Assembly (NCBI GenBank): GCA_964609265.1
Contig: CAZSQR010000001.1
Coordinates: forward strand, 1 to 60,335
Reading direction: 5' to 3'
DNA: 60,335 nt
From: Candidatus Woesearchaeota archaeon
GTDB lineage: Archaea; Nanobdellota; Nanobdellia; Pacearchaeales; GW2011-AR1
Position 1 is the stretch's first letter. Each line of letters opens with the position of its first letter. The notes beneath the pieces are model-generated. The model did not search any database. It worked only from the letters and a program-made list of their open reading frames with translations, and was not told the origin of the DNA. The position numbers were made by a program, and so were the translations under genes. Below, piece by piece: positions 3,736 to 59,373 of this stretch.

Positions 3736-3861
3736 GAGCCCGTAGCTCAGCCTGGTTAGAGCACTACTCTGATAACATCAAAAATCAGGGATTTTTGGGG
3801 TGTTCCAAAATCTTCGATTTCAGACAGGTAGGGGTCCTCGGTTCAAATCCGAGCGGGCTCA
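3736..3861 (+). tRNA. tRNA-Ile (anticodon GAU) with an intron of about 51 nt at the canonical 37/38 position
   Basis: Acceptor gagcccg/cgggctc, D arm gctc-agcctggtta-gagc, anticodon stem ctact/ggtag, loop ctGATaa. Intron is roughly 3775-3825. T arm ctcgg-ttcaaat-ccgag. Confidence 0.85.
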
Positions 3862-7627: not shown

Positions 7628-9667
7628 ATGGACGAGCAAATTCAATCCGGAAAGGCAGGAAAGACAAAAAACGATGAGTTGATAATTGAAGCCAAGAACT
7701 TCTTTGATTTTCATAAAAAAGAAATTGGTGAATCTATCAGAAAAGGAAAAAATGTAATATATATTGATTTTGTAAAACTTACAGAATTCTCAAATAAGCT
7801 TGCAGAAGAATCTATAACAAACCCTGAAGAAACCATCAGAATTGTAGAACTTGCTCTTGAAGAAACAGGGCTTGTAACTGGTGTTCTTGTCAGGTTTATA
7901 AATTTCCCAAAAAGCCAGGAAATAAAAATAAGAAATATCCGTTCAAAGCATCTCAATGAAATGCTTGTTGTTGAGGGCATTGTTCGCCAGGCAAGTGATG
8001 TAAGACCTCAGGTTGTAAATGCAAAATTTGAGTGTCCTTCATGCGGCACAGTTATCTCTGTTCTCCAAATGGAAAAAAAATTCAGAGAGCCAGCGAGATG
8101 CTCTTGTGGCAGACGCGGGGGATTCAAACTTATAGGAAAAGAGATGGTTGATACCCAGAGACTTGTTGTTGAAGAATCTCCAGAATCCTTAACAGGCGGT
8201 GAACAACCAAAAAGAATGAATGCCTTCCTTAAAGAAGACCTTGTTGAGCCGAAAATGGAAGAAAAAACAACCCCTGGAAGCAGGGTTAAAATCATAGGAG
8301 TTCTAAAAGAAGTTCCTGTTCCACTTAATTCAGGAGGACTTTCCACAAGATTTGAGCTTGCTCTTGAAGTCAATAACATAATCCCTATGGAAGAAACTTT
8401 TGAAGAGCTTGATATTAATGAAGAAGATGAAAAACAAATTATTGAGCTGTCGCAGGATCCAAAAATTTTTGAAAAACTTACAAAAAGCATTATTCCAAGT
8501 GTATGGGGTTATAAAGAAATAAAACAAACTCTTGTGCTGCAGCTGTTTGGCGGAGTTAAAAAAATCCACGCTGACGGGCAAAGAAGCAGGGGGGATTTGC
8601 ATATACTTCTTATAGGAGACCCTGGTGTTGCAAAATCAGCAACTCTTAATTTTATGGCAGGTCTTTCCCCAAAAGGAAGATATGTAGTAGGAAAAAGCGC
8701 AACAGGCGCAGGACTGACAGCAACAGTTGTTCGTGATGAATACCTGCGTGGCTGGTCTCTGGAAGCAGGAGCCATGGTTCTTGCGAATAAAGGCCTTATC
8801 TGTATAGACGAGCTTGAAAAAATGGATCCTCAAGACAGAAGCGCAATGCACGAAGCAATGGAGCAGCAGACAATAACAATCAGCAAAGCAAGTGTTCAGG
8901 CAACTCTTAGGGCAGAAACATCTGTGTTGGCAGCTGCAAACCCCAAGTTCGGGAGATTTGACCCTTACCAGCCAATTGCCCAGCAAATTGACCTGCCACC
9001 AACCCTGATAAACAGGTTTGATGTTATTTTTCCATTAAGAGACCTGCCTGACAGAAAGAAAGACGAACTAATTGCATCCCATGTTCTTTATGCACACCAA
9101 AAATCAGGAAAAGAGATGCTTATTCCAAGAGAAATTTTCAGAAAGTATGTGGCTTATACAAAACAAAGAATAAATCCTGCTTTAAGTGATGAATCTGTTA
9201 ATGAAATCAAAAAATTTTATGTTGAACTGCGAAATATGCCTGTCTCTTCAGAAGGCTCAATCAGACCAATTCCAATCTCTGCACGACAACTACAGGCTTT
9301 AATTAGAATGTCTGAAGCTTCTGCAAGAATGAGACTTAGCAAAATCGTAACTGCAGAAGATTCAAGAAGAGCTATAGAAATAATGAAATATTATCTAACA
9401 CAGGTTGGCTATGACTATGAAACAAAAACTTTTGACATTGACCGTGGCACTGGCGGAATGCCTGCCTCACAGAGAAACAAAGTCTTCCTTGTAAGAGATA
9501 CAATAACAAACCTGGAAAGCAAATTAGGAAAAATGATTCCGATTGAAGAACTGGAAAAAGAACTTGAAGGAAAATTAACATCTGATGAAATCGACGAAGC
9601 AATAACAAAACTTGACATAAGCGGCGTGATATTTAAACCTAAAAAAGGATATATTGCCAAGACTTAA
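7628..9667 (+). CDS. mcm: MCM replicative helicase
   Basis: Zn motif CPSCG...CSCG, Walker A LLIGDPGVAKS, Walker B CIDELEKM, arginine finger region SRFD-like NRFDVIF, and a C-terminal winged helix. The ORF track starts at GTG 7622. Confidence 0.92.
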   Translation: MDEQIQSGKAGKTKNDELIIEAKNFFDFHKKEIGESIRKGKNVIYIDFVKLTEFSNKLAEESITNPEETIRIVELALEETGLVTGVLVRFINFPKSQEIKIRNIRSKHLNEMLVVEGIVRQASDVRPQVVNAKFECPSCGTVISVLQMEKKFREPARCSCGRRGGFKLIGKEMVDTQRLVVEESPESLTGGEQPKRMNAFLKEDLVEPKMEEKTTPGSRVKIIGVLKEVPVPLNSGGLSTRFELALEVNNIIPMEETFEELDINEEDEKQIIELSQDPKIFEKLTKSIIPSVWGYKEIKQTLVLQLFGGVKKIHADGQRSRGDLHILLIGDPGVAKSATLNFMAGLSPKGRYVVGKSATGAGLTATVVRDEYLRGWSLEAGAMVLANKGLICIDELEKMDPQDRSAMHEAMEQQTITISKASVQATLRAETSVLAAANPKFGRFDPYQPIAQQIDLPPTLINRFDVIFPLRDLPDRKKDELIASHVLYAHQKSGKEMLIPREIFRKYVAYTKQRINPALSDESVNEIKKFYVELRNMPVSSEGSIRPIPISARQLQALIRMSEASARMRLSKIVTAEDSRRAIEIMKYYLTQVGYDYETKTFDIDRGTGGMPASQRNKVFLVRDTITNLESKLGKMIPIEELEKELEGKLTSDEIDEAITKLDISGVIFKPKKGYIAKT

Positions 9668-9682
9668 ATTTTAATCATTAAA

Positions 9683-10366
9683 ATGGTTCAGGAACAACAA
9701 TTCAAAAGAAACACAGCTTACAAGTTGCGAATAGGTAATATTCTGATAGGCAAGCCTGTAATGAATTCTGTTTCAGGCACAGAAAGATTTTCTTTTCTTG
9801 AGCTTGGAAATAAAAAAATTGTCAGGGTAAATATCATAGGAAACATAGTTGACAAGTATGAAAGCAGAGGAGCAAGCGAAACTGGTGCGTCTGGCAATGA
9901 AGACAAACCAAGGAAATATGTTTTTTTCACACTTGATGATGGCTCAGGGCAGATAAGACTGAAAGTATTTGGAGATTATTATGAAAAATTCAAGGACTTT
10001 TACCAGGGACAGACAGTAGTTGTAATCGGAACCTTAAGAAACTGGAATGATGAAACATATATCTCTCCTGAAATTGTCAAAGAAACAAACCCAAAATATC
10101 TTCTTTTGAGAAAGCTTGAAACAGAAAAAGAAAAGGCTCTGACATTTGACGCATCATCAATTAAAAAAGAACAGGTTATGGCAATAAAAGACAAAATCCT
10201 TGAACTTATAAAATCCTCTGAAAGTGAAGGAGGAATTGAAACAGAAGATATCACGCAAAAATTTGTAGAAGTTTCACCTGCCCTAATTCAGCAGGAAATT
10301 CAGAAGCTTCTTGAAGAAGGAATTGCTTTTGAACCACGACCTGGTAAAATAAGATATTTAGGGTGA
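9683..10366 (+). CDS. OB-fold protein with C-terminal winged helix (RPA32/Stn1-like architecture)
   Basis: VRVNIIGNIVDKYE...YVFFTLDDGSGQIRLKVFGDY...QTVVVIGTLRNWNDETYISPE is the RPA2/Stn1-type OB pattern. The C-terminal ILELIKSSESEGGIETEDI...LLEEGIAFEPRPGKIRYL looks like a wHTH. Confidence 0.55.
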   Translation: MVQEQQFKRNTAYKLRIGNILIGKPVMNSVSGTERFSFLELGNKKIVRVNIIGNIVDKYESRGASETGASGNEDKPRKYVFFTLDDGSGQIRLKVFGDYYEKFKDFYQGQTVVVIGTLRNWNDETYISPEIVKETNPKYLLLRKLETEKEKALTFDASSIKKEQVMAIKDKILELIKSSESEGGIETEDITQKFVEVSPALIQQEIQKLLEEGIAFEPRPGKIRYLG

Positions 10367-10403
10367 TTATCTTTCCTTTTATCAACAAATTTATATTAAA
10401 AAA

Positions 10404-10910
10404 CTATTTTTTCTTTTTATTAAACCAATATGCCAGCCAAATAACCGCAATCAATCCAACTAAAGACAAAAGAAATTTCAACAAATTACTTCCGTACCTC
10501 CAATAACCGCCAACGCCCCATAAAAGAACACCAATTCCTCCTCCAGCCAAACCAGCACCAACTGTCTCAAGACCAAAGAAAGCAATTCCAGCAATAATCA
10601 AAACAATTCCCAAAGGAAGTGTAATTAAAAATATATTTCTTGAATATATTTCTTGTGCGTCATCATATTCTTCATAACAATCTTTATCAGCGTCACAGTA
10701 TCCAACTGGTTCAATCTCTGATTCACCTGATTTGCCCTCATACCAGACACCGCCAGCATTTATACATGCTGTTTCAGTTTTTATCTGATAAACATCAGGA
10801 CAAAAATCACTGTATTCTGGTCTTTCGTAAAACATTTCTATTCCATATATAACAACAAAAATAGTCAGGACAACTATTGCAATACCTATTACTACATTTT
10901 TTACTGACAT
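10404..10910 (-). CDS. Membrane protein with Cys-rich acidic extracellular loop
   Basis: ORF track extends to 10952, but a TATA-like box (plus 10931-10940, acttataaat) lies about 25 nt upstream of the internal ATG at 10910 (MSVKNVV...). One N-terminal TM and 2-3 C-terminal TMs. Loop has CPDVY...CINAGG...CDADKDC. Confidence 0.5.
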   Translation of the reverse strand: MSVKNVVIGIAIVVLTIFVVIYGIEMFYERPEYSDFCPDVYQIKTETACINAGGVWYEGKSGESEIEPVGYCDADKDCYEEYDDAQEIYSRNIFLITLPLGIVLIIAGIAFFGLETVGAGLAGGGIGVLLWGVGGYWRYGSNLLKFLLSLVGLIAVIWLAYWFNKKKK

Positions 10911-11009
10911 AACATAATTAGTAATGAAATACTTATAAATTCTTCCAATCAAAAAGTTTTCCCAAGTTCTTTTCTAAAGACTTAAAAACCAATCCTCTCT
11001 CGTTAATCT

Positions 11010-11411
11010 ATGACATATGAACAACTTTTAGAACAGGCATATAAGAAAGTAAAACAGACAGGTGTCTCTGGCAAAAGATTTGAAATTCCAAAAATAGAGG
11101 GATATTTTGAAGGGAAAAAAACAATCCTTACAAATTTTTATCAAATAGCTTCTTATTTAAGGAGAGACCCTGCACATTTCCAAAAATTTATACTAAAAGA
11201 ACTTGCAGCTTCAGGCCAAAGAGAAGGTGACAGGCTTGTTTTGAATATAAAAGTTCCAAGCACAAAAATAAATCAGAAGGTAGAGAATTATGTTAAGGAA
11301 TTTGTCCTGTGCAGGGAATGCAAAAAACCAGACACAGAAATAATAAAACAAGGCAGAATAAATTTTATCCACTGCTTGGCTTGCGGAGCCAAACATCCAA
11401 TTTCAAAATAA
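11010..11411 (+). CDS. eif2b: Translation initiation factor aIF-2 beta subunit
   Basis: eIF2beta/eIF5-type: TILTNFYQIASYLRRDPAHFQKFILKELA... and C4 ribbon CRECKKPDT...CLACG. Confidence 0.85.
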   Translation: MTYEQLLEQAYKKVKQTGVSGKRFEIPKIEGYFEGKKTILTNFYQIASYLRRDPAHFQKFILKELAASGQREGDRLVLNIKVPSTKINQKVENYVKEFVLCRECKKPDTEIIKQGRINFIHCLACGAKHPISK

Positions 11412-21336: not shown

Positions 21337-22788
21337 TTATTCAATATACTTTTTAATAATTTCTGAAGCATCTTTTCCCGAGATTCTTCCTTTAAATTCT
21401 TTCATTACCAGCCCCATGTAAGCTTTAAGAGAAAGTCCTGGTTTTTCTTTGATAATTTTGAGTATTTTTTCTTCAACCTCATTAACGTCTTTTTTCTTAA
21501 TTTTAATTGCTTCAGATATTTTAATTCCTTGTGCAACCCTTATCATAGCTTCCTTCATTTGGTTCGCTACAAGCTGATGTTTTTTAATCGCGTTTAGAAG
21601 AGGTTCTAAAGAATTATTAAGAATATTTGAAATCCTATCAATCTCATTTCTAACTTTACCCAATTTCCTCGCCAATTCTGTTTGATAAACCAACATAGAT
21701 TTAGCTACTAAAGAGGGCTGATTCAAAACCTTAAGTAAACTTTTAAATTCCTCCACCCTATTTTGTTTAAACAAAAGCTTAATCATCTCATTGTTTAATC
21801 CCTTCTTTGTCAATTCTTCTTCAATCTCTTTCTTTAACTTAGGCATAACCTTCTTAGTTTCATTGATTAATTTTCTTGATATTTTTAATATTGGCAAATC
21901 AGTTTCAGGATACATTCTGGAAGTCCCTGGCATCGGTCTTAAAAATTTTGTAGTTCCATCTGGTAAGACATTTCTGACTTCGGATTTTCCTTCTTTAAAT
22001 ATCTTTTTTTGTCTTTTTATTTCAAGTTTAATAACTTTAATCATTATTTTTGGATTTTGAAATCCTTTAATTTCAATTCTCGGGTGTTCTTTTATAGAAA
22101 TATTCAAATCCTGCCTTATAGTTCCCAAACCTCTCTTAACACCAACACTTCTCAAAATTTCTCCAATTTTTAATGCTGTTTCTTTAACCTGTTCAGGGGT
22201 TCTAAGGTCAGGAGATGTTGTTATTTCAACCAAGGGGATACCTAATCTATCCAATCTAAAGATTGTTTTTTTATCTCCCCTTTCAATTATCCTTGCCGCA
22301 TCTTCTTCCAAATACAGCTCTTTTATTCCGACTTTACCAAAAGAAAGTTCAATAAAACCATCTCTTGCAATAAGAACAGTTCTCTGAAATCCGCTTGTAT
22401 TGCTTCCATCAACAACTGTTTTCCTCATAATCTGAGATATAGGAATTATTTTCATGTTTAACAAAAAAGCAATTTGTAAAGCAGTTTTCAAAGCTTCTCT
22501 GTTTATCTTGTGTGGCGGTTCTTCATCAAGCTCCACAAGACAATTTGTATCATAACCCTGATAGACAAATTCCCTGCCTTTTTCTACTTCATGCATTGCA
22601 GCAACATCAACTCCGCCCTCCTCCCCGGCAACAGCATGCAACTTTCTCTTAACAGTAAAATCCGGTTCACCATATCTTAAAACAGAAGGGCAATTACAAA
22701 ATAGCTTTTTACCTCCGGCATCCAGCTGCTGATGAATTTCTAATCCGCATTTTAAACCTAGCTTCTTGTAATTGATTTCTGAACCCAT
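21337..22788 (-). CDS. gatE: Glu-tRNA(Gln) amidotransferase subunit E (short form)
   Basis: GLKCGLEIHQQLD..KLFCNC, LVELDEEPPH, VVDGSNTSGFQRT, RLGIPLVEITT, GLGTIRQDLNISI, FLRPMPGTSRMYPETDLP. 483 aa. Confidence 0.85.
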   Translation of the reverse strand: MGSEINYKKLGLKCGLEIHQQLDAGGKKLFCNCPSVLRYGEPDFTVKRKLHAVAGEEGGVDVAAMHEVEKGREFVYQGYDTNCLVELDEEPPHKINREALKTALQIAFLLNMKIIPISQIMRKTVVDGSNTSGFQRTVLIARDGFIELSFGKVGIKELYLEEDAARIIERGDKKTIFRLDRLGIPLVEITTSPDLRTPEQVKETALKIGEILRSVGVKRGLGTIRQDLNISIKEHPRIEIKGFQNPKIMIKVIKLEIKRQKKIFKEGKSEVRNVLPDGTTKFLRPMPGTSRMYPETDLPILKISRKLINETKKVMPKLKKEIEEELTKKGLNNEMIKLLFKQNRVEEFKSLLKVLNQPSLVAKSMLVYQTELARKLGKVRNEIDRISNILNNSLEPLLNAIKKHQLVANQMKEAMIRVAQGIKISEAIKIKKKDVNEVEEKILKIIKEKPGLSLKAYMGLVMKEFKGRISGKDASEIIKKYIE

Positions 22789-22813: not shown

Positions 22814-23587
22814 TTAAATTTTGTTTACAACTTCTTTTATTGTCTCGCTGATTTCTGTCAAAGAAATATTTTTTCTTCCACTTCTCTTCAATTCTCCATA
22901 GACTAATGAAGCAAAGTAATCAGAAGAAATTTTATATTCTCTTGGTATCTGCAAACTTAAAAGAGTTTTCTTTATTTCCTTTATTAATCCTTTCTTTGTC
23001 TGGTTAACACTTGTCTCCCAGAGTTTAGCAAACTTTTGTTTTTCATAATCTTTAACAACTACCCCCTCCCTACCATAAGAGGTATATCTGCTTTCTCCTG
23101 TTGCGAGAGTTTTAATTTGGTCTAGATTTAATCTGCCTTTAGCTAAAGTTTCTAAGAAAAATATATCCTTTACACCAAATCTCTTTTCTAAATTATCTTT
23201 AGCTTTTTTATACGAGATAAATTTTTCCTTTTCTAGATCATAAATATCAATCAAAAAAAATTTATTTACAAATTTGGAAGAGTATGGAATTGTATGATGA
23301 GACATAAACTCACCATAAACTATTAAATTTTCAGGAAGATTATAAAGGCTATAATTAGATTTAGCCCATCTGTTAAAATTTTTAAACCAATCAAATCTAA
23401 AATTTTCTTCCCTATTCAAAAAATTAGCTCTGCTACCTGTAAAAATTCTTCCCTTATAATTTCTTATTTGAGTATTCCCTCCATCTAATTTCTCATACAC
23501 CTCCAAGGAATCACTATCCAAGATATTCAGAATCTCCATTAAGTGAGGAATCTCGGGAAATTTTACAAAAGCTGGCTCTGTTTTCAT
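22814..23587 (-). CDS. ATP-dependent RNA ligase-family nucleotidyltransferase (257 aa)
   Basis: Motif I YEKLDGGN (the KxDGxN form typical of RNA ligases), Ia FTGSR, III LIVYGEF, IV FFLIDIY, V REGVVVKD. The ATGA overlap couples it to the upstream gene. Confidence 0.68.
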   Translation of the reverse strand: MKTEPAFVKFPEIPHLMEILNILDSDSLEVYEKLDGGNTQIRNYKGRIFTGSRANFLNREENFRFDWFKNFNRWAKSNYSLYNLPENLIVYGEFMSHHTIPYSSKFVNKFFLIDIYDLEKEKFISYKKAKDNLEKRFGVKDIFFLETLAKGRLNLDQIKTLATGESRYTSYGREGVVVKDYEKQKFAKLWETSVNQTKKGLIKEIKKTLLSLQIPREYKISSDYFASLVYGELKRSGRKNISLTEISETIKEVVNKI

Positions 23588-24246
23588 TTTCTATACCTAG
23601 TAGAGAGATTTTCTAATTTGGGATATTTATCTGAAAAATTTTCATTGATAAATCTTACTCCTTCCTTCATATGTTGGTCTGGAGAAAAGACTATAACCGG
23701 TTTAATAGAATATTTTTTTCCTTTTTCTTCTATATAACTTCCACTAATTCTGACAGCATTAACTAAGATATCTTTATCTGCTTCTGAAAAACCTTCTTCA
23801 TGTTTTTTGTGATTGCATTTACAAGATTGCTTAGATACCCAATATACATCATACCTCGCATCATCTAAGGGAATTTCTGTTCTTGTTCTTCCTAAAAAAT
23901 CTAGAGAATCATCTACAATATCCTCAATATATTTAAAAGTTTCATGACTAATTTCTGGAACATGCCCATTGATATGACAATTCATATGTGCAGTTATCTC
24001 TGAAAAAACATAAGGAGTAACAATTAAAGGAATTTTCTTTCTTATTAAAGACAAAAAGCTAGGAGTATGATAATCTTTTGGTTCTAAATTTTTATTATGA
24101 CAAAGGGTACATCTTCTACTAGACTGTTCCAAATCAATCAAAGCACCTGTATCTAATAAAATTACTGGCAGGTTCCCACTACTAATTCTCTTATAAGAAT
24201 GGATATCTTTCTCTAAATCTGATAATTCTTTTAACTTAAATTTCAT
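23584..24246 (-). CDS. PIN-domain-like nuclease with Cys/His-rich insertions (220 aa)
   Basis: Four acidic positions in canonical PIN context and order: VILLDTGALI, YVFSEIT, SEADKDILVNAV, IVFSPDQH. Extra CTLCH, NCHINGH and CKCNHKKH clusters. Confidence 0.5.
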   Translation of the reverse strand: MKFKLKELSDLEKDIHSYKRISSGNLPVILLDTGALIDLEQSSRRCTLCHNKNLEPKDYHTPSFLSLIRKKIPLIVTPYVFSEITAHMNCHINGHVPEISHETFKYIEDIVDDSLDFLGRTRTEIPLDDARYDVYWVSKQSCKCNHKKHEEGFSEADKDILVNAVRISGSYIEEKGKKYSIKPVIVFSPDQHMKEGVRFINENFSDKYPKLENLSTRYRK

Positions 24247-24373: not shown

Positions 24374-24796
24374 ATGAAAAGAGAAGAGAAAAAAGAAATA
24401 TTACGAGAAGAGGTCTTTGAAAAATTAGGCCATATAAACTTTAGACGCCCAAAAACATTTGGGCAAAAAGCAGCGGATTGGCTGACAAAATGGGCAGGTA
24501 GCTGGATATTCATTATTGGATTTCTGATTTTTATAGGACTCTGGATATATGTTAATATTTATTTTTTAATTCAGTATAAAATAGCAGAAGTATGGGACCC
24601 ATACCCATTTATTCTACTAAATCTTGTTTTGTCTTGTTTAGCTGCAATTCAAGCTCCAATAATTTTAATGAGTCAAAATAGAACAGCTCAAAGAGATAGA
24701 TTAAAAGCAGAATTTGATTACAGAATAAATAAAAAAGCGGAAAAAGAAATCAGGGAAATAAAAAATCTTTTATTAAGAAAAAAAAGAGAAAAATAA
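24374..24796 (+). CDS. DUF1003 family membrane protein
   Basis: FGQKAADWLTKWAGSW, two TM helices, WDPYPFILLNL...SQNRTAQRDR. Confidence 0.7.
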   Translation: MKREEKKEILREEVFEKLGHINFRRPKTFGQKAADWLTKWAGSWIFIIGFLIFIGLWIYVNIYFLIQYKIAEVWDPYPFILLNLVLSCLAAIQAPIILMSQNRTAQRDRLKAEFDYRINKKAEKEIREIKNLLLRKKREK

Positions 24797-24799
24797 GAT

Positions 24800-26068
24800 T
24801 TAATTTTTCAATCTGTCATTCAACTCACCAGAGATATTCTCCAGCATTTTTTCTTTAACATTCCATTCCTTATGCCCTAAAACCCACCCAAGTTTTACAA
24901 GAGATGTCTCTGAAAGCATATCTTCAAGAAAAATAACTCCTGCTTTCAAGAGCTCACGACCATTTGAATAAACAAAAGGATCAAGTCTTCCATACATCGT
25001 CTGAGAAGCAGCACAAACAACAATTCCTTTTTTCTGAATCTCCTTAATTTTTTTCAGCCAGGATTTCCTTGCTCCTCTTGCAGGAACATGCCCCAAACCA
25101 GTAACCTCAAGGACAATTCCTTTATATTTGTTTTTCATGTAATAATCAAGAATTTTAGGATCCTGCCCAGGAAAGACTTTAACAAGAGCAACTTTTTCTT
25201 CAAATTTTGCATCAAGTTTTACTTTGTTTTTGTTCCTTAAGTTCCATTCAGAGACTCTTTCAATTTTGTCAGGATAAATTTTCGCAAGAGGATTTCCATT
25301 CACAACCTTAAATGCGTTCCTTCTTGAAGTGTGCATTTTTTTGACTTTTGTTCCAGGCATTGCCATGCAGTAATCATCATTTATCGTTCCGTGTCCTACT
25401 AAAATAACTTCTGCCATATCTGAAATGGCAACAAGTGCAGCACACTGTAAATTCAAATTGGCGTCAGAGCTTGCCCTGTCTATACTTCTTTGGCTGTAAG
25501 TTAAAACAACAGGCTTATTCAGATTTTTCAGAAAAAAACTCAGGGCAGCAGCTGTATAATGCAAAGTATCTGTTCCGTGGGTAATTATAATTCCTTTGAT
25601 GTTTGAATCGTTCAGAAGCTTTTCAGTTACGCGCGCAATTTTCTGCCAGTCTTTAAAATCCATATCCTCGCTTGCTTTCATAAAAGGCACCTCAACTCTC
25701 GCCACATTGGTTTTTTCAAATAATCCAGGATAAAACCTAAAAAGTTCAGAAGGTTCTGTCAGCGGGGAAACACCTCCTGTCCTAGAATCCAGACGAGAAG
25801 CAATTGTTCCTCCAGTAATAATCATTGCAATATCTGGTTTATTAGGAGACTTTTTTATTTCGGCTTCTTCAGTTTTTTTCTGAGATTTTTTCAAAACTCT
25901 TATTTTCAAAATATCTCTTTTGCTAAAACCAATATTATAACCTGTTCCAAGTTTCAAAAGAATAATCCCTTTTTCAGATTCAGGACTTTCCAAGAGAATT
26001 CCTTCATAAATTATCTTACTAAGATGCACCTCAACCAAGTCTCCTGGTTTGGCATTTGTTTTTTCCAT
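24800..26068 (-). CDS. gatD: Glu-tRNA(Gln) amidotransferase subunit D (asparaginase-like)
   Basis: N-terminal beta-barrel GDLVEV...EGILL. Asparaginase motifs ITGGTIAS and IIITHGTDTL. Confidence 0.88.
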   Translation of the reverse strand: MEKTNAKPGDLVEVHLSKIIYEGILLESPESEKGIILLKLGTGYNIGFSKRDILKIRVLKKSQKKTEEAEIKKSPNKPDIAMIITGGTIASRLDSRTGGVSPLTEPSELFRFYPGLFEKTNVARVEVPFMKASEDMDFKDWQKIARVTEKLLNDSNIKGIIITHGTDTLHYTAAALSFFLKNLNKPVVLTYSQRSIDRASSDANLNLQCAALVAISDMAEVILVGHGTINDDYCMAMPGTKVKKMHTSRRNAFKVVNGNPLAKIYPDKIERVSEWNLRNKNKVKLDAKFEEKVALVKVFPGQDPKILDYYMKNKYKGIVLEVTGLGHVPARGARKSWLKKIKEIQKKGIVVCAASQTMYGRLDPFVYSNGRELLKAGVIFLEDMLSETSLVKLGWVLGHKEWNVKEKMLENISGELNDRLKN

Positions 26069-27293: not shown

Positions 27294-27422
27294 TGGGTCT
27301 GCCAGGACTCGAACCTGGATCAACGGGGTTTTCCGAAGTTCGCTCGCGTTATAGTAAGGCAAAATGTCTCTCGCAAACTCCCTCGCCGAAACCCGTCATT
27401 CTATCCATTGAACTACAGACCC
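27294..27422 (-). tRNA. tRNA-Arg (anticodon UCG, tentative) with an intron of about 55 nt
   Basis: Reverse complement gggtctgtagttcaatggatagaatgacgggttTCGg...[intron]...cccgttgatccaggttcgagtcctggcagaccca. Acceptor gggtctg/cagaccc, T arm ccagg-ttcgagt-cctgg. The anticodon call assumes the canonical 37/38 intron site. Confidence 0.7.
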
Positions 27423-30374: not shown

Positions 30375-31424
30375 TTAAAATTTTTTAAGGTTTTCCCTGA
30401 ACTTTTCAATATCATCAACATTTATTTGTCCTCCAATAGCATCTTCATGCCCGCCTCCGCGCGCTCCTTCAATGTCCTTAATAACTTCCAAGAAAATTTT
30501 TCTTGATTTTTTACCACGCATTGAAATATTTGCTTTTACTCCCTTAATATAAACAACAATAATTATTTTTTCAGGAAAAATATAACTCAGCTCGTTTGCC
30601 AAATCCGCGCTAATACTTAAATCACCCCCATACTGAAAAAAAAGCATTTTTTTCTGACCCTTTCCAACCGAAACCGCCTTTGTAAAAAGTTTTTTGTATT
30701 TTGATTCTATTTGTTTGAATCTGTGATGTAAAGAACGATTCTTGCTGTTTTCCTCAAGAACCTCGTAAGGACTTTTCGCCTTAATCAAAAATCTTATCAT
30801 ATTCATCACATTTGTTGTTCTGTCTTTAAGTCCTGCCCCAATAATCCTCGCAACTCTTCCAATTTGAGACTTATAATAAACATCCATAGCATTTTTTTCT
30901 TTTCCTTTTCTTCTGATAGTTAAATCAGGATATTTTTTTTCAAACTCGCTATAAAATTTTGGGAAGAATTTGTCAGAAATACAGCCCGCAACAGAAATCC
31001 ACAAATCTTCTTTTTTTTCTGTTATCTGATAACACAAAGCTGTCACAGGCTCTGATTTTTTTGTTCTGTTAAACAAAGGATTATAATAATTAACAAAGGC
31101 AGGAATTTTTTTGGTATCTGCAAGATGATGGTCTATCCACACAACAGGCAGATTATGTCTTTCTGCCTCGGCAAAAAAATCTTCAGAGACAACAGGTTTA
31201 TCGAGAATAAAAATATAATCTGACTTAAACTCGTGAATTTTTCTGAAAAATTCTGCAGTTAACTCTGGAAAAGATTTTATTGGAACCCCTTTCCCTCTGT
31301 CAAGATACCTTCTTAATAAAAGAAAAGAACACAGTCCATCCTGATCATTATCAAAAAAGAAAACCGGATTCTGAGCGTTGTTAAGGTGCTCTTTAATTTC
31401 CCTGATTTGTTTTTTTGTAAGCAT
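30375..31424 (-). CDS. DHH/DHHA1-family phosphoesterase (NrnA/Pde2-like size)
   Basis: FFFDNDQDGLCS (DxD), VWIDHHLAD (DHH), GGGHEDAIGG (DHHA1 GGGH). 349 aa. Confidence 0.75.
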   Translation of the reverse strand: MLTKKQIREIKEHLNNAQNPVFFFDNDQDGLCSFLLLRRYLDRGKGVPIKSFPELTAEFFRKIHEFKSDYIFILDKPVVSEDFFAEAERHNLPVVWIDHHLADTKKIPAFVNYYNPLFNRTKKSEPVTALCYQITEKKEDLWISVAGCISDKFFPKFYSEFEKKYPDLTIRRKGKEKNAMDVYYKSQIGRVARIIGAGLKDRTTNVMNMIRFLIKAKSPYEVLEENSKNRSLHHRFKQIESKYKKLFTKAVSVGKGQKKMLFFQYGGDLSISADLANELSYIFPEKIIIVVYIKGVKANISMRGKKSRKIFLEVIKDIEGARGGGHEDAIGGQINVDDIEKFRENLKKF

Positions 31425-31502: not shown

Positions 31503-32618
31503 TCAAATTTTCTTTCCCATAAGTATTTTCTCTTTCAGGTTTTTTATCTCTTCCATAAAAGATTCCACAAAATTCTCGTTCTTGAAAATACTTTTTAAAG
31601 ACTCTTTATCAATATTAAAAATCTTGTCAAGTGTTTTTAAATTATCAAGGAGGGTTTTGATATCTTTTTTAAGGAGGTTTGTTTTTTTTAGAATTCTCGT
31701 TCCCTTTGATGCAACAGGTTTGTCGTGTAACTCATCAAAAAGCATTCTCAAAACATTGGATGTCTCAAGCAAAAAATCAAAGTTCATATTACGCAGAATT
31801 TCGTCTTTTTTTGACCTGCCAGAACTGAAATAATCTTTGATTATGCTTTCTCTCTGCTTGCTAAGACTTCTTGTAAGCTCTTTAAGTCTCATGCTAACAA
31901 TCACTCCTTCTTTTCCAAGCTCAACAAGGTACTTTTTAACATTTTCAGAAATCCTTCTTATTATCTCGGCAGTCTGCAGAACATTACAGACATCACTCAT
32001 TGTAGTCAAACCTGTAATTTCAAGAACATTCAGATGAGAGAGTAATTCATCAAATATCTCTTTTTGTTTTTCAAGAATCTGGAGAGTTTCCGCAGCCCTT
32101 CTCAAAATCTCTGAAGTCTCTTCAAGATAATGGCTTTCATCTCCAAGATAAATTGTTATCTTTTTTCTTCTTTCAGAAACAGCAACGACAATTGTGTTGA
32201 ATTGTTTGGCGGTTCTTTCTGCTGCTTTATGTCTTGTTCCTGTCTCTTTTGAATTAATTTTACTGCTTGGGGTTAAAAGAGTATTTGCATACAGGATTTT
32301 TTTCAAATCTTTTGAAAGTATAATAGCTCCATCCATTTTTGCAAGTTCAATAAGCTTCTGAGGGGTAAATTTGCAATTAATTTTAAACCCTCCCTCAACA
32401 ATATCTAAGAGACCCTCTTTTTCAAAAACAATCAAAGCACCCATTTCCGCGTGGAGCATATCATCAAGAGCGGTTCTTATCGCTGCTCCAGGTGAAAAAT
32501 TTTTCAAGATGTCCGTGAGGTTTTTTTCTTCGTCAGAAACTTTTTTGCTTTTCCCTATCTGGCTCTTCACTGTCTGTTTTTCAGACTGCTCCATTGATTG
32601 AGATATTTGGTTTGTCAT
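31503..32618 (-). CDS. disA: DisA-type diadenylate cyclase (DAC domain + helical linker + degenerate C-terminal domain)
   Basis: GALIVF...GGF, LIELAKMDGAIILS, ETGTRHKAAERTAKQ..VVAVSERRKKITIY. The start was moved to ATG 32618 (MTNQ...), which is 26 nt downstream of a TATA-like box. The ORF track starts at 32657. Confidence 0.8.
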   Translation of the reverse strand: MTNQISQSMEQSEKQTVKSQIGKSKKVSDEEKNLTDILKNFSPGAAIRTALDDMLHAEMGALIVFEKEGLLDIVEGGFKINCKFTPQKLIELAKMDGAIILSKDLKKILYANTLLTPSSKINSKETGTRHKAAERTAKQFNTIVVAVSERRKKITIYLGDESHYLEETSEILRRAAETLQILEKQKEIFDELLSHLNVLEITGLTTMSDVCNVLQTAEIIRRISENVKKYLVELGKEGVIVSMRLKELTRSLSKQRESIIKDYFSSGRSKKDEILRNMNFDFLLETSNVLRMLFDELHDKPVASKGTRILKKTNLLKKDIKTLLDNLKTLDKIFNIDKESLKSIFKNENFVESFMEEIKNLKEKILMGKKI

Positions 32619-45124: not shown

Positions 45125-45643
45125 ATGGAAAAAATTAAGGCACATATTGCTAGCGAGACAATTTCAAGCAATTCTACAGAGGCTTTCACTTTACACAAGA
45201 AAAGTAGTTTTGGCGAACCTATAGGAGAAAAAATTCAGTATTCTCTGTCAGAAGCACTTTTCCTTGTTGAAAAGAATAAAACAGAGGTTTTTTGTGGTAA
45301 GAAAAAAATTTCGTCTGAAGAGCTTTTGAAAAAACTCCAGAAAATTGACAAGAGAATCTCGGTTAAATATCGCGTTTTTAAAGATTTAAGGGAAAGGGGC
45401 TATCTTGTAAAAACTGCTCTAAAATTCGGGGCTGACTTTAGAGTTTATGAAAAAGGAGCAAAGCCAGGAAAAAAACATGCCAAATGGATTGTATTCGCAG
45501 ACCATGAATCAAAAAAGCTTACATGGCATGAATTTTCAGCCAAGAATCGTGTTGCCCACAGCACAAAGAAAAAACTGCTCTTAGCGATTGTTGACGACGA
45601 AGGAGATGTCAGTTATTGGGAAGTAAATTGGGTGAGACCCTGA
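45125..45643 (+). CDS. endA: tRNA-splicing endonuclease
   Basis: YRVFKDLRERGYLVKTALKFGADFRVYEKG...HAKWIV is the catalytic C-terminal domain pattern. Confidence 0.85.
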   Translation: MEKIKAHIASETISSNSTEAFTLHKKSSFGEPIGEKIQYSLSEALFLVEKNKTEVFCGKKKISSEELLKKLQKIDKRISVKYRVFKDLRERGYLVKTALKFGADFRVYEKGAKPGKKHAKWIVFADHESKKLTWHEFSAKNRVAHSTKKKLLLAIVDDEGDVSYWEVNWVRP

Positions 45644-49739: not shown

Positions 49740-52700
49740 ATGGGAAGAACTCGAATAGCTAAAGCTATAATTTTGTCATTAAGGGAGAAAATAAACCTTG
49801 CTGAAAAAGGTGAAAAATATTTTTTAGATTATTTAAATAAACTAGAAGAAAAATATCAGAAGGGGGAAATTTTCTATGATTTTTATGTTGAGACTATTTA
49901 CAAACATTTCGAAGGAAGAACAATAAAAGGATGGATTGAGTATTATGATAATTACATAAAAGGATGTAAAAAAAAGATAAAAGAACAGAAAAAGACTTTA
50001 TTAAGGAAAAAAATTTTGAATAGTTTTCTTTTCTTATTTTTCTTTTCTGTTTTAACCTTAAGCATTCTTAATACATCAGTGAAATTCACTGGTTTTGGAG
50101 TGCAGGAACAGGAGAATTTGACCAAAAATATTACAGAATTTAATGAATCAGATTCAGATGAAATAAAAGGAGAGATTTCTCAAAACCAAACAAATATAAG
50201 TTCTTCCCAAGAGAAATCTCCTCCTTTTTCTGAAACAACAGAAGAATCAGCTGAAGAAAATATAACAAAATCAGAAGAGAATATAACAGAAATTTCTGAA
50301 GAAGAGGTACCAGTTAATATAACAGAAAATGAAACTGAAGTAAACATTACAGAACCAGAAGAGAATATCACTGAAGAAATACCTGAAGAACCAGAAACAA
50401 ATATAACAGAGTCAGAAGAGAATGCAACTGCAGAGGTTCCTGAAGAGATACCTGAAACAAATATAACAGAAAATATTACTGAAGAGATTACTGAAGAAAT
50501 AAATATCACTGCAAATGCAACCATCACAACAATCCAACAGCAAGCAGTTCTTGGACAGCCAGTTAAATGGAAAAAACAAATTTCTCCAGAGACCCCTGGA
50601 AATCTGACATTAAAACTGCCAAAAGAGGCAGAAAACATACAAATTAATAAAATAAAAGAAAAACAAGAAACAAAGGCAAGAGCAAGCATTACAGGAGGAG
50701 TTATTGGAACAGGAGAAAAAGAATCAATAATTTTAAAGATATTTAATTTCTTCAAAAATTTTTTAAATAAAATATTTGGAACAATAACAGGAAAGGCAAT
50801 AGCAACAGAAGGAGAAGAAAAAGAAATTGAGGTAGAGATTGATGATGAGACTGCAGAATATGAAATTGAATATGAAACTCCTGCACCTTATGCAATTGAA
50901 GAAGACTTGCAGAATGGAAAAAAGATAACTATTGTTGGCCCAGAAACAATTCACTATGAAAATGTTCTGGCTTTCACAGAGTTAAACGAAAAGCTTAATA
51001 TCAAAAATCCCTTTTCTGTAAAAATTTACTGGATTGAAAATGACTCATATATACCCATACAGAACATAAATGATTCAGACAGCAACGGAATTTATGACTA
51101 TATTGAATGGGTTGTGCCGAGTTTGTCAGAGCAAACATTTGAAATAATTGTTATAACAAAAGCAGAGCACCTTAATGAGAATAAGGAATTTATTTCTGAC
51201 ATTTATGAAGAAGTTAAGGAGTTAGATGATATATGGAGTGAGGAAATTTCAGATGGAGAGTATATAAGAGTCACTTTTGAAAGGGCACTTGATAATACAA
51301 AAGATATAACAATTTACCCCCGCATTACAAACGGAGATCCAAGAATAGAAGTTTATGAAATTAATGGCACAGAATTAATTGCAGAATTTTCTGAAATTAA
51401 TTCAAATGAATATAATACAGCTTACTTAACCAATCTCCAAGGACAAAAGGATGTTTTTGATTTAAAGATTTTAGACGGAAATATCGAAATTGATTATATT
51501 GTTGATCCTCTAGCAGAGATAACAAAAGTAGGAACAGATACATATAATTCAAGTGCAGCTTCACCATTAGAATTTTCACACACTCTTGTCGAAGGAGATA
51601 ACAGATTAGTTGTTGTTTACTTTGGTGCTGAAAATAATGGTGAAAATGATGTAACAAGTGTAACTTATGGTGGACAATCCATGACCCAGGCTGTTGAAGA
51701 TGGTGGAACAGGAACAGGATACCAAAACAGAGCAGAAATTTGGTATATTCTGGAGAATGACCTTCCATCTAATGGTGCTAATACAGTATCAGCTACAATT
51801 ACTCCAGCAAGTACATTAGATTTTAAGGCATATGCTGCTGAATATACTGGTGTAAATCAGGGAATACCTGAAGCCACAGACGGAACTTATCAAACATCGG
51901 GTTCTACAATTGAAAATACAATTAGTCCTTCTACTGATGCTTGGGTGTTTTCAGCAATGGACGAAGGAAATACAGGTTCTTGGGCACATGGCCAAAGTCA
52001 GGAAGAATTGTGGGACTTTCAAGATGCTTCTTCACAATTTGCTGTTACAGAACTTCGTGGTGCAGATGGGGAAACATCAGTAGATTCTACTTTTACAGGA
52101 ACTGCCAATCGTTTGGCAAGAGTTGCTGCATCATTTGCACCTGCAATAACCAATTCCGCACCATCAACACCAACAAACATAACTTGTGATGGGGGAAATT
52201 GTAACATAACTATTGATACTACTGTTAATATAAATGCCTCTGGCTCCGTAGACGATGATTCAGATGATATAACTTATTTCATTGAAGCTTCTTTAGAAGA
52301 TATAGTAACAAGCGAAAATTCAACAGATGTTAGTATGGCTGGGAGTGGGGGAAGTGGAGGGGGAATTGCATTATATGATGGTTTCAATGAAGGTCCGGCA
52401 GAAGGTCAAGTATCTACAAGTAATTGGGCTGATGGTGGGGGTGACTATTATTGGTTGTATGGTGATGGTAATACGCCATCAGGTACCACAGGTGACAATG
52501 TCAATGTAGAAGGTGACTATTTTATTTATATAGAGTCATCAAGTCACACTAATGAAAACAATTACCTCGTCAGTTCTGAATTCGAATTAGCTTCTAGCGA
52601 TACTTTAGTTCTTGACTTCTTGTATTATATGTATGGTGCGCATATACAAACTTTAAAAATTGAGATAGATTACGGTGGTGGTTGGGATGAACTCTGGAGC

Positions 52701-55217: not shown

Positions 55218-56135
55218 ATGAAAAAGAGAGAGATTAACCTTTTAATTTTACTTTTAATAATAGTCTTATCTTATTCCTTTGTATCTGCAATGGATTTTTC
55301 TGATTTATGGGGAAAGATTACAGGCAAGGTAACAAGCCAGGAAACAAATATATCAATTACTGTTGCAGGTGCTAATCAAGCACAAATAACCACTGTTTCT
55401 TCAATACCAAACACAGACCCGACAGAATCTTCTTCAAAAGCAATAACATTTTACGCGATTATGTATGATGCAGATGGTGTTGGTGATTTGAATGACTCAA
55501 GTGTGAATGCAACTTTCAGCAAAGCAGGAGAGACAACAAGATATAACTCAAGCTGTGTGTTGGTTGGGGATTTAGATGCAACCTCAGCAAATTATTCTTG
55601 CTTAATAACTATGTGGTATTGGGACGGGAGTGGGGCCTGGACTATTAATGTAAGTGGAACAGATTTAGGAAACCAAACACGTGTTTATAATGATTCAACA
55701 ACTTTTACCTACAATGAATTAAAAGCAATGGCTATATCCCCCACATCATTAACATGGCCTGGTGTTTCTATTGGTGCAACAAATCAGGTATCAGATAATG
55801 ATCCTACAACAGTTAATAATACAGGAAACTATGATGGAACAATTGATTTAACAGGAATTAATCTTCTCGGTGAAACCACTGCAAGTGAATATATACCTGT
55901 TGTTAATTTCTCTGTGGATATAGATACTGGTGGGGCTGCAGAATGCGACGGCACAAATCTTGTAAATAATACAGCTACAGAAATAACAAGCAGTGATTCA
56001 AATCCAGGGAATCTATCAGCAGGAGGAGGGGCTGGACAAGAAGAACTTTATTATTGCATAGTTGAGGTTCCTTCAGACATATCTTCTCAGACTTATTCAA
56101 CATCAGAAGGAGGTAGCTGGACAATAGCTTATTAA
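55218..56135 (+). CDS. Secreted protein paralogous to residues ~1355-1609 of the giant protein
   Basis: Signal-like MKKREINLLILLLIIVLSYSFVSA. The body aligns with the giant's C-terminal ectodomain module and ends ...GGSWTIAY. It has its own TATA-like box about 26 nt upstream. Confidence 0.7.
   Translation: MKKREINLLILLLIIVLSYSFVSAMDFSDLWGKITGKVTSQETNISITVAGANQAQITTVSSIPNTDPTESSSKAITFYAIMYDADGVGDLNDSSVNATFSKAGETTRYNSSCVLVGDLDATSANYSCLITMWYWDGSGAWTINVSGTDLGNQTRVYNDSTTFTYNELKAMAISPTSLTWPGVSIGATNQVSDNDPTTVNNTGNYDGTIDLTGINLLGETTASEYIPVVNFSVDIDTGGAAECDGTNLVNNTATEITSSDSNPGNLSAGGGAGQEELYYCIVEVPSDISSQTYSTSEGGSWTIAY
55374..56124 (+). repeat. Copy B of the duplicated module
   Basis: See copy A (53802-54563). 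Confidence 0.85.
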
Positions 56136-56136
56136 A

Positions 56137-56682: not shown

Positions 56683-56721
56683 TTCTGATAAATTTAAATA
56701 TATATTATTATTCTTTGTTTT

Positions 56722-59300: not shown

Positions 59301-59373
59301 AGCGAGGACTGGGAATTGAACCCAGGAATACTCGGGCTGCAACCGAGCGCGTTAACCTCTTCGCCATCCCCGC
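59301..59373 (-). tRNA. tRNA-Cys (anticodon GCA)
   Basis: Reverse complement gcggggatggcgaagaggttaacgcgctcggttGCAgcccgagtattcctgggttcaattcccagtcctcgct. Discriminator is U, as expected for Cys. Confidence 0.88.

Follow-up and report, generated by a model that had tools for sequence, protein, structure and literature searches.

A putative PIN-like nuclease encoded together with a minimal Rnl3-like RNA ligase in DPANN archaea

We analyzed a 60,335-nt stretch of archaeal DNA (the window; contig CAZSQR010000001.1, Candidatus Woesearchaeota archaeon) in which two overlapping genes encode a protein that we call X and an ATP-dependent RNA ligase that we call Rnl. The pair looks like a new, unannotated version of the nuclease–ligase partnership known from HARP and Rnl3. 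The reading we put first, and judge to be evenly balanced between right and wrong, is that X and Rnl are translated together and inherited vertically, as a two-enzyme module for RNA processing in DPANN archaea of the Pacearchaeota/Woesearchaeota type.

A gene pair within a tRNA-charging cluster

X and Rnl lie between gatD/DUF1003 and gatE, within a tRNA-charging cluster, and are present as a single copy in the window (Table 1). The two ORFs described by the first-pass annotation were verified exactly in the sequence, on the minus strand and with a 4-nt ATGA overlap, and every peptide string quoted there occurs in the two translations. This overlap suggests that translation of X may be coupled to that of Rnl. 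Both are real genes under purifying selection rather than chance ORFs, since Rnl matches PF09414, the X family gathers 134 profile matches, and comparison with the nearest relative (L111) yields dN/dS values of 0.15 (X) and 0.16 (Rnl). The pair had also been credited with its own TATA box, and the TATA-like TTTATAAA fits this; its distance from the X ATG would imply a leaderless or near-leaderless bicistronic mRNA, of which it would be the promoter.

Table 1. Positions and assignments of features at the X–Rnl locus, numbered from the first nucleotide of the window
Feature	Position	Strand	Remarks
X	23584..24246	minus	220 aa; putative PIN-like metallo-endoribonuclease, predicted from sequence
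Rnl	22814..23587	minus	257 aa; minimal ATP-dependent RNA ligase, PF09414 match
ATGA stop/start overlap (X end/Rnl start)	23584..23587	minus	4 nt, read from sequence
TTTATAAA	24268..24275	minus	archaeal TATA-like box; -29 to -22 from X start codon
gatE	21337..22788	minus	directly downstream of Rnl, 25-nt spacer; NF003107, 498 bits vs cut-off 456
TTTAATAAA	about 25–33 nt before gatE ATG		gatE's own motif; spans the Rnl stop codon, with the TAA inside the motif
DUF1003 membrane protein gene	24374..24796	plus	divergent; PF06210, E 2.4e-34
gatD	24800..26068	minus	upstream of the X–Rnl pair; NF003217, 455 bits vs cut-off 310

The tRNA-charging surroundings described earlier are equally secure. GatE and GatD exceed their family cut-offs, as do a non-discriminating AspRS (488 bits vs cut-off 353), an AsnRS (460 bits vs 414) and a ProRS (571 bits vs 437) identified in the window by profile matches; the DUF1003 neighbour is found in some relatives only (L005 and L026). 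A canonical splicing endonuclease, EndA, is also encoded in the window, which thus has no obvious RNA-processing gap calling for X–Rnl. The window further contains a tRNA-Cys/tRNA-Arg tandem with a 1-nt spacer, the separation of which needs an endonuclease. A search for conserved ncRNA beside the pair gave, besides sub-threshold noise, just a tRNA with an intron at a distance of 3 kb.

Rnl is a minimal ATP-dependent RNA ligase

The sequence of Rnl is that of a genuine ATP-dependent RNA ligase, as had been proposed, and its active site is complete and invariant. It matches PF09414 with 63.8 bits (GA 27, E 2.8e-17), and the residues of motifs I, III, IIIa and IV are invariant: across 34 sequences, with identity down to 27%, E32, K33, D35, G36, R42, E93, D114, E174, G175 and K179 do not vary, and K188 of motif V is at least 90% conserved. 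The predicted adenylylation lysine is K33 within EKLDGG. All motif strings picked out by the first-pass annotation are present, but the assignment of FLIDIY had to be corrected to motif IIIa (D114); EGVVVK is motif IV (E174/G175/K179).

Rnl consists of a nucleotidyltransferase domain that starts at residue 1 and a family-specific helical tail of ~60 aa. By profile comparison, its nucleotidyltransferase domain is, among solved ligases, nearest to Rnl3 and then to Rnl5; the family profile recovered from the PDB Pab1020 (Rnl3; E 4e-11), 8uce (1e-7), 3qwu (2.5e-7) and NgrRnl (Rnl5; 2.7e-7). The alignment with Pab1020 spans only residues 88–290 of its 389. Rnl also stays below the TIGR01209 cut-off (34 vs 136.9 bits), matching positions 79–248 of 375 of that profile, and PF18330 (Lig_C) has no match in Rnl.

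X has an invariant acidic tetrad in a PIN-like arrangement

As a single sequence, X matched nothing in Pfam, NCBIfam or the PDB, and one of its homologs is labeled 'hypothetical protein' by NCBI. The X family comprises about 130 clusters, with 134 profile matches at E<=1e-3 that include at least two false positives: long matches considered as domain fusions were a protein with ankyrin repeats and a repeat protein of 3209 aa, and were rejected. Alignment of 106 members revealed an invariant tetrad, D32/E83/D157/D190, together with T33, I37, D38, H87, E98, K147, S154 and H192, each conserved at 90% or more. The extra Cys/His clusters that had been pointed out in X survive only as H87 (95%) and H192 (97%), with each Cys conserved at 30% or less; there is thus no conserved zinc site, and we rejected this idea.

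An initial AF2 model from five sequences (pLDDT 59) was replaced by a model from 106 sequences with a pLDDT of 94.8. In the latter, D32 follows strand 28–31, E83 lies inside helix 78–88, D157 sits at the N-terminus of helix 155–168, and D190 follows strand 184–187. These modeled positions, at strand ends and a helix N-terminus, are those expected of a PIN core, and the predicted order of elements is compatible with the beta-alpha-alpha-beta-alpha… topology of PIN domains.

The first-pass reading of X as a PIN nuclease was partly sustained by profile searches. PIN_4 was matched below threshold by 13 of the 106 members and PIN_12 by 11, and nine of ten subfamily consensus or singleton sequences matched PIN-clan models in register and below threshold, many from profile positions 1–3 (best PIN_12, 2e-5). 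Gathering scores were not reached anywhere in the family (PIN_12, 25.5 vs 32 bits; PIN_4, 19.4 vs 21.9), and the family profile returned only noise from PDB sequences. A structure search with Foldseek, proposed as a check, did not confirm a PIN fold: the 94.8-pLDDT model found nothing at E<0.07 in the PDB and BFVD, with generic alpha/beta enzymes on top and scattered insignificant matches to FEN/5'-3'-exonucleases.

The absence of a PIN match for so confident a model would suit a protein that is no nuclease at all and serves the ligase as an accessory or end-modifying subunit, that is, an RNA-binding or targeting factor or an end-healing phosphoesterase with a Rossmann-like alpha/beta fold only superficially resembling PIN. 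The X consensus does weakly match the HAD 'Hydrolase' model (E 0.017), a partner protein could stand in for the Rnl3 N- and C-terminal domains that Rnl lacks, and the overlapping or abutting gene junctions would befit co-translated subunits of a putative complex. We nevertheless consider this unlikely, as the four invariant acidic residues occur in exact PIN order and secondary-structure context, the matches that recur are to PIN-clan families and not to HAD, and the X sequence contains neither the DxDxT HAD motif nor a P-loop. Given the invariant tetrad and the sub-threshold profile matches, the core of X is most likely that of a PIN-like metallonuclease.

X is not detectably a HARP protein

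HARP proteins occur in extremophilic Euryarchaeota, Sulfolobales, Aquificales and similar groups. Their linkage to Rnl3 has been noticed statistically only, and archaeal HARP knock-outs are not known to show a phenotype. The first-pass annotation knew of no described PIN+Rnl system, a view that the literature has overtaken: co-occurrence of PIN_5/HARP with a TIGR01209 (Rnl3) ligase was noted in 2017 by Matelska et al. (PMC5499597), and the HARP–Rnl3 linkage was analyzed in 2025 by Seshadri & Gopalan (PMC12153264). The two proteins co-occur in about 700 genomes, and a trim-then-circularise role has been proposed for them (PMC12153264; PMC5499597).

X might be related to HARP, either as a functional analogue or as an extremely divergent homolog, and would then be a minimal protein-only enzyme of the RNase P type that processes pre-tRNA 5'/3' ends and is firmly tied to its ligase. 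The two have a common size class, partner type and tRNA-related neighbourhood, and the tRNA tandem in the window calls for endonucleolytic separation. In a by-eye alignment that has no statistical support, the HARP signature D7-T8-S9…D138-S139-x-E141-D142…D160 is paralleled in X by D32-T33-G34, S154…D157 and D190, which is to say DT[GS] after strand 1, S…D at a helix N-terminus and a late D. A helical insertion in X with conserved R/K before the D157 helix takes the place of the HARP spike-helix domain. However, X lacks equivalents of HARP D138 and E141, has an invariant E83 in addition to the HARP-like residues, and is aligned to HARP in a different register by HMMER than by eye.

We compared X with a set consisting of one HARP recovered via its Rnl3 neighbour and 80 further HARP loci. 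Alignment of the X family with HARP by hhalign gave probabilities of 2.2% and 0.7%, a weak negative because the control, HARP against PIN_2, scored only 4% and shallow alignments have little power. HMMER cross-scores were 9–14 bits with inconsistent registers, PF08745 was not among the reported matches of X members or their consensus, and no HARP structure appeared within the Foldseek top 50 for the X model. On the hhalign, HMMER and PF08745 results, we rejected X as a member of the HARP family. Moreover, every surveyed archaeon, DPANN included, is reported to retain one or more proteins of the RNase P RNP (PMC6380272). We regard this HARP-like role or ancestry of X as quite improbable.

The pair is conserved across DPANN lineages

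The adjacency of X and Rnl is not peculiar to this contig, the outcome that the first-pass annotation had named as refuting its reading. In 31/31 DPANN loci examined, from ~18 lineages and with X identity down to about 20% (22/22 in a first set, plus distant members and L111), Rnl comes directly after X on the same strand; this includes distant X members with profile E-values from 4e-12 to 6e-4. The junction ranges from -11 to +13 nt, overlapping or abutting in every lineage, and L111 has retained the ATGA overlap. In pairwise comparisons, the identities of X and Rnl rise and fall together (Spearman 0.79), but their similarity rankings are discordant for the window, L005 and L011, so that the two are not strictly co-inherited. 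Conserved adjacency may, in very compact genomes, last even where there is no functional coupling, a general point against reading the pair as a module.

The usual setting is gatD…X-Rnl…gatE-aspS/asnS, in which GatD is 52–74% and GatE 53–74% identical among relatives. X evolves faster than these neighbours, with 20–37% identity across lineages that share the gatD–gatE position. Genes for DUF1003, a guanylate cyclase, a glycosyltransferase or a CBS protein are inserted beside the pair in relatives, on either side of it but never between X and Rnl. In L011 and L025, the intact pair lies outside the gatD/gatE block, in one case behind an S13-S4-S11-RpoD-L13-S9 operon and in the other behind PTH2.

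Both a toxin/antidote and a defence function had been floated for the pair, and we disfavour both. In such a system, X would be a toxic PIN RNase acting on tRNA or rRNA and Rnl would undo the damage, serving addiction, abortive infection or stress dormancy. TA toxins make up roughly one-fifth of the PIN-like proteins of prokaryotes (PMC5499597), a TA function has been considered for HARP–Rnl3 itself (PMC12153264), and the tight bicistronic arrangement, the fast evolution of X and the X/Rnl discordances, which hint at occasional gene exchange, would all fit. Yet the single-copy pair keeps its syntenic, housekeeping position across lineages in which X has diverged widely, the partner of X is an enzyme rather than a small DNA-binding antitoxin, and X and Rnl are under similar purifying selection. 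True PIN_2+RHH_12 VapBC pairs exist as separate modules in the same genomes. According to a passage in PMC12153264 that cites the work, an Rnl3 knock-out in T. kodakarensis showed no growth defect. Neither X nor Rnl matched any PADLOC-DB 2.0 family at E<=1, PHROGs yielded no meaningful match for either protein, and no X–Rnl relatives were found among IMG/VR viral contigs; on these searches, we rejected a defence or mobile-element function. Taken together, we find a toxin–antidote or defence role distinctly improbable. Instead, we favour a vertically inherited RNA cut-and-ligate module for maturation or repair over a toxin–antitoxin pair, given the lack of an antitoxin-like partner, the lack of defence, phage or viral-contig links, and a dN/dS of ~0.15 for both genes.

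That X and Rnl are functionally unrelated, their adjacency and gatD/gatE context being frozen synteny in streamlined genomes, is highly improbable: DPANN genomes are compact and have long blocks of synteny, and the variable genes inserted around the pair mean that its neighbourhood is not a strict operon, but no insertion ever separates X from Rnl although both flanks take them, the pair stays intact where it has moved, and its junction is overlapping or abutting throughout.

A proposed RNA cut-and-ligate module

For the module that we favour, we infer nuclease activity and end chemistry of X, an RNA substrate, and functional or physical coupling between X and Rnl. X would act as a PIN-like two-metal endoribonuclease via D32/E83/D157/D190, helped by T33, S154 and H192, and would cut a precursor or damaged structured RNA to leave 5'-phosphate and 3'-OH ends. 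Rnl would then self-adenylylate at K33, transfer AMP to the 5'-phosphate, and join the 5'-phosphate to the 3'-OH, most likely within one molecule by analogy with Rnl3. Candidate substrates, to be circularised or resealed, may include C/D-box sRNAs and tRNA- or rRNA-related species.

In this pair a different PIN-like family shares an operon with a minimal ligase of the Rnl3-like kind, in a lineage from which HARP is reported absent, which strengthens the case that a PIN nuclease and an ATP-dependent ligase make a genuine functional unit and not a coincidence. It also gives a testable function to about 130 clusters that are apparently core to many Pacearchaeota/Woesearchaeota genomes, in which RNA processing is largely unexplored, and it offers a simpler pair for biochemistry, in which both proteins are small and share a single promoter and mRNA. 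A more far-reaching proposal, which we think rather unlikely, is that X is a third, independently recruited minimal protein-only RNA 5'/3'-end endonuclease, analogous to HARP and obligately coupled to a stripped-down Rnl3-like ligase, in a cut-and-circularise or cut-and-rejoin pathway for tRNA or other stable RNAs of Pacearchaeota/Woesearchaeota, apart from EndA/RtcB. If this proposal holds, the coupling of PIN and Rnl would be either ancient or a solution reached repeatedly, and the tightly operonic X–Rnl would be the cleanest system for learning the role of the enigmatic HARP–Rnl3 partnership.

Comparison with known systems

Rnl shares the KxDG, GE and EGxxxK motifs with Rnl3 ligases (Pab1020, MthRnl, PpaRnl), which circularise single-stranded RNA in an ATP-dependent manner (PMC4797309). 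Rnl3 ligases are ~380–400 aa long, whereas Rnl lacks their N-terminal and dimerisation/Lig_C domains and differs further by its unique 60-aa helical tail and its lysine at position 33. Rnl5 ligases (nick-sealing; NgrRnl, DraRnl) belong to the same Pfam family, PF09414, and are the second-best solved relatives, but they carry an OB-like domain at the N-terminus and lack one at the C-terminal end, the opposite of the layout of Rnl. The layout of Rnl (lysine 33, nucleotidyltransferase domain from residue 1) probably resembles that of T4 Rnl2.

On the nuclease side, VapC-group PIN proteins (PIN_4, PF13638; PIN_12, PF16289) have the best sub-threshold profile similarity to X and have in common with it the acidic tetrad and a DT after strand 1. 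X exceeds them by about 90 residues and carries conserved insertions (an E98 hairpin, and helices 127–151 with D128/R131/Y132/K147). VapBC systems are mobile and pair the toxin with a DNA-binding antitoxin, whereas X is paired with an enzyme at a syntenic, housekeeping position. Bacterial RNA repair operons (Pnkp–Hen1, Pnkp1–Rnl–Hen1, RtcB–RtcA) likewise combine an RNA ligase with an RNA end-processing enzyme. The partners there are kinase-phosphatases, methyltransferases and cyclases that heal 2',3'>P/5'-OH ends, and X is unlike them, being nuclease-like and devoid of a P-loop or HAD motif.

The closest parallel in composition is with HARP–Rnl3, where a PIN-superfamily nuclease of likewise ~200 aa is linked to an ATP-dependent ligase with an Rnl3-type nucleotidyltransferase domain, also in a neighbourhood related to tRNA or translation. 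The components differ, as X is not detectably PF08745 and its ligase lacks the Rnl3 N-domain and Lig_C and falls far under the TIGR01209 cut-off. So do the taxa, since X–Rnl is found in DPANN archaea, from all of which HARP has been reported absent (PMC6380272). Gene orientation differs as well: HARP–Rnl3 gene pairs are described as 'typically bidirectional' (PMC12153264) and lay on opposite strands in 29/29 linked loci that we fetched, whereas X and Rnl are co-linear, nuclease first, and overlapping or abutting at every locus examined.

Results

Linkage of X and Rnl

The strongest result of our analysis is the linkage between X, a putative PIN-like metallo-endoribonuclease, and Rnl, an ATP-dependent RNA ligase. 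Each gene occurs once in the window (G+C 33%), the coordinates, lengths and ATGA overlap are as the first-pass annotation gave them, and all peptide strings that it cited are found in the two translations. Given where the TATA box lies relative to the X start codon, the archaeal mRNA may be leaderless and bicistronic. X and Rnl are genuine genes under selection: dN/dS against the nearest relative, locus L111, is 0.15 and 0.16, respectively, and L111 retains the identical overlap.

Features of the X–Rnl pair, with side observations from the window and related loci
Feature	Source	Position	Strand	Remarks
X	window	23584..24246	minus	ORF, 220 aa
Rnl	window	22814..23587	minus	ORF, 257 aa
X/Rnl overlap ATGA	window	23584-23587	minus	read from sequence
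TTTATAAA box	window	22-29 nt 5' of X start codon		TATA box
GatE	window	21337-22788	minus	483 aa against 622-630 model positions; models matched in two stretches
tRNA	window	27294-27422	minus	129 nt
tRNA	window	3736-3861	plus	126 nt
EndA	window	45125-45643	plus	PF01974 1.4e-29, PF02778 1.1e-8
tRNA-Cys/tRNA-Arg	window	59301-59373 and 59375-59449	minus	1-nt spacer
DisA-type diadenylate cyclase (DAC + DisA-linker) adjoining DHH/DHHA1 phosphoesterase	window	30375-31424 and 31503-32618	minus	
1817-aa ORF	window	49740-55193	plus	
Three ORFs following it	window	55218-58476		signal-peptide-like N-termini
LAGLIDADG homing-endonuclease-like ORFs	related loci L008; L010; L011	9972-10795; 1220-2026; 3029-3931		
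VapBC-type PIN_2 + RHH_12 pairs near gatD/gatE cluster	related loci L023; L028	7136-7813; 1325-1946	minus	
Rnl3 called as two ORFs	L030, JGI metagenome contig	9372-11026		PF09414 then PF18330

Besides L111, the DPANN loci examined comprised four contigs found via ligase homologs, seven loci on contigs found via the close X homologs P0003 and P0005, eight GTDB genomes found via X patterns, and four distant X members (profile E 4e-12 to 6e-4). In all of them X is followed directly by a PF09414 ligase gene on the same strand (22/22 confirmed by tblastn, the other loci via gene calls), with the two genes overlapping by up to 11 nt or separated by up to 13 nt; the adjacency is thus not unique to this contig. 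Every named source is a MAG or SAG of Pacearchaeota, Woesearchaeota or Nanoarchaeota. Across 17 lineages, pairwise X identity correlates with pairwise Rnl identity (Spearman 0.79). The window's X is nearest to that of L005 (58%), its Rnl to those of L015 and L018 (62%) and only 43% identical to the Rnl of L005, which is itself nearest to that of L011 (61%; X of L005 and L011, 27%). These discordant similarity rankings suggest that one gene of the pair has occasionally been replaced by a homolog from another lineage.

The tRNA-charging neighbourhood described earlier was confirmed by direct profile tests of the flanks: GatE (498 bits, cut-off 456), GatD (455 bits, cut-off 310) and non-discriminating AspRS, AsnRS and ProRS each exceed their own cut-offs, and the DUF1003 gene divergent to the pair matches at E 2.4e-34. 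The window's GatE appears to be a shortened form with an internal or terminal segment missing; lengths of 472-521 aa also occur among relatives. In related genomes, LAGLIDADG homing-endonuclease-like ORFs lie repeatedly near the gatD…gatE-aspS block.

The ligase

Rnl matches PF09414 at 63.8 bits (gathering score 27). In an alignment of 34 homologs with identity down to 27%, its nucleotidyltransferase residues are invariant in motif I (E32, K33, D35, G36), at R42, and in motifs III (E93), IIIa (D114) and IV (E174, G175, K179), while in motif V K188 is conserved in at least 90% of sequences; the string FLIDIY, cited by the first-pass annotation, is motif IIIa and not motif IV. The family profile best matches Pab1020 (Rnl3, 4e-11) in the PDB, followed by the Rnl3-like chains 8uce and 3qwu and then Naegleria Rnl5 (2.7e-7). 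Because the alignment to solved ligases is limited to the nucleotidyltransferase core, the TIGR01209 score is below threshold (34 bits, cut-off 136.9), and Rnl carries neither Lig_C (PF18330) nor the Rnl3 N-domain, we classify it by sequence as a minimal Rnl3-like ligase outside Rnl3 proper. Its tail of ~60 aa is helical and family-specific.

Protein X

X alone had no match in Pfam, NCBIfam or PDB, and a homolog is named 'hypothetical protein' at NCBI. A profile built from five word-search homologs matched 134 representatives at E<=1e-3, at least two long ones being false positives; family members are nearly all 200-250 aa and single-domain. Only four columns of a 106-sequence alignment are invariant (D32, E83, D157, D190), with T33, I37, D38, H87, E98, K147, S154 and H192 at least 90% conserved; the Cys/His clusters noted earlier proved not to be conserved. 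An AlphaFold2 model from this alignment (pLDDT 94.8, pTM 0.91) puts D32 at a strand end, E83 in the helix following the second strand, D157 at a helix N-terminal cap and D190 after a strand, a predicted placement that is the PIN pattern.

Sub-threshold Pfam matches were to PIN_4 in 13/106 members and PIN_12 in 11/106, and the whole-family consensus matched PIN_4 at E 0.007, likewise sub-threshold. Of ten sequences representing subfamilies, by consensus or as singletons, nine matched PIN_12, PIN_4, PIN or PIN_3 below threshold, many from profile positions 1-3; the top match (2e-5) scored 25.5 bits where the gathering score is 32, and X reached that of no curated PIN family, so that it is not formally a member. 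Foldseek searches of PDB and BFVD with the model gave no significant match. Members of the PIN-like superfamily, namely flap endonucleases and 5'-3' exonucleases, were listed at insignificant ranks only. With the invariant tetrad and sub-threshold profiles on one side and the lack of curated membership and of a significant Foldseek match on the other, X is probably a PIN-like metallonuclease, as first proposed, and rather unlikely to have an accessory or end-healing role instead.

Other genes in the window

Rfam found two tRNA genes that ARAGORN missed. One (minus strand), ~3 kb from X–Rnl, has a ~57-60 nt insert in the anticodon-loop region and is thus intron-containing. The window encodes EndA, the canonical archaeal tRNA-intron (splicing) endonuclease, so the standard BHB-cleaving enzyme is available in this genome; its 2',3'>P/5'-OH products are not directly sealable by an ATP-dependent ligase. 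The tRNA-Cys and tRNA-Arg genes need precise endonucleolytic separation, being a single nucleotide apart. The DisA-type cyclase and its neighbouring phosphoesterase are likely a c-di-AMP synthesis/degradation pair in a DPANN archaeon.

Discussion

We see about an even chance that X and Rnl form a co-translated nuclease–ligase mechanism of RNA processing. The TATA box would drive a bicistronic message on which translation of the two genes would be coupled. X, as a two-metal PIN-like endonuclease, would cut a structured precursor or damaged RNA to leave 5'-phosphate/3'-OH ends, as HARP and PRORP-type PIN enzymes are known to do (PMC12217051). After adenylylating its own K33, Rnl would seal or circularise the product. 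From the analogy with Rnl3 and the pair's genomic company, the best guess for the substrate is a small stable RNA, either a C/D-box sRNA or a tRNA-related species.

A toxin/antidote or defence module, as the first-pass annotation also offered, is improbable. The pair has no PADLOC match and no meaningful PHROGs match, and IMG/VR viral contigs yielded no relatives; no DNA-binding antitoxin was found with it, and classical PIN_2+RHH_12 VapBC modules exist separately within the same genomes. Its syntenic housekeeping position, and purifying selection that acts alike on X and Rnl, also disfavour these readings.

Just as improbable is an RNase P-like role for X as an analogue of HARP. HARP has been reported absent from all DPANN, and RNase P RNP proteins retained by all archaea (PMC6380272). 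X was not detectable as a HARP itself, with no PF08745 among the reported matches of members and consensus sequences, hhalign probabilities of 0.7-2.2%, and HMMER cross-scores of 9-14 bits in inconsistent registers. Since a control pairing of HARP with PIN_2 likewise reached no more than 4%, a very remote kinship may exist.

Synteny alone is a most improbable account of the adjacency: the gatD … X-Rnl … gatE-aspS/asnS block does recur (identity 52-74% for GatD, 53-74% for GatE), but insertions (DUF1003, guanylate cyclase, glycosyltransferase, CBS protein and small ORFs, for example) flank the pair on either side with none between its genes, and the pair is intact outside the block in L011, behind PTH2, and in L025, behind an S13-S4-S11-RpoD-L13-S9 operon.

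The first-pass observation stands, and its interpretation is supported in part: the ligase is confirmed and a PIN-like core of X is probable. It knew of no PIN–ligase system, but one exists in PIN_5/HARP with the TIGR01209 ligase Rnl3 (PMC5499597, PMC12153264). Matelska et al. (2017) found PIN_5 co-occurring with the TIGR01209 ligase, a tRNA methyltransferase and a tRNA synthetase (PMC5499597). Seshadri and Gopalan (2025) reported HARP, a minimal protein-only RNase P, together with Rnl3 in ~700 extremophile genomes, often <=5 kb apart and 'typically bidirectional'; in their proposal, C/D-box sRNA precursors are trimmed by HARP for Rnl3 to circularise, or HARP removes adenylylated leaders, and they argued against a toxin–antitoxin role (PMC12153264). 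In our comparison set, a genuine HARP beside a split Rnl3 (L030) plus 80 further HARP loci, Rnl3 lies <=3 kb from HARP in 29/81 loci, on the opposite strand in 29/29. The two-ORF Rnl3 of L030, which may reflect a frameshift or a split gene, is convergent with a bona fide HARP (PF08745) and overlaps its 3' end; the HARP sequences there are closest to Aquificales structures, and 3 kb upstream there is an RtcA RNA cyclase.

Like HARP–Rnl3, the DPANN pair lies in a tRNA-related neighbourhood and combines a putative PIN-superfamily nuclease with an Rnl3-type ligase; the two systems differ in nuclease family, ligase architecture and lineage, and the genes of the DPANN pair are co-linear, overlapping or abutting in all loci examined. 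In DPANN archaea, an unannotated, apparently PIN-like family thus seems to be tied to a minimal Rnl3-like ligase. This adds a new lineage to an unexplained nuclease–ligase partnership and offers a simpler system for learning what that partnership does.
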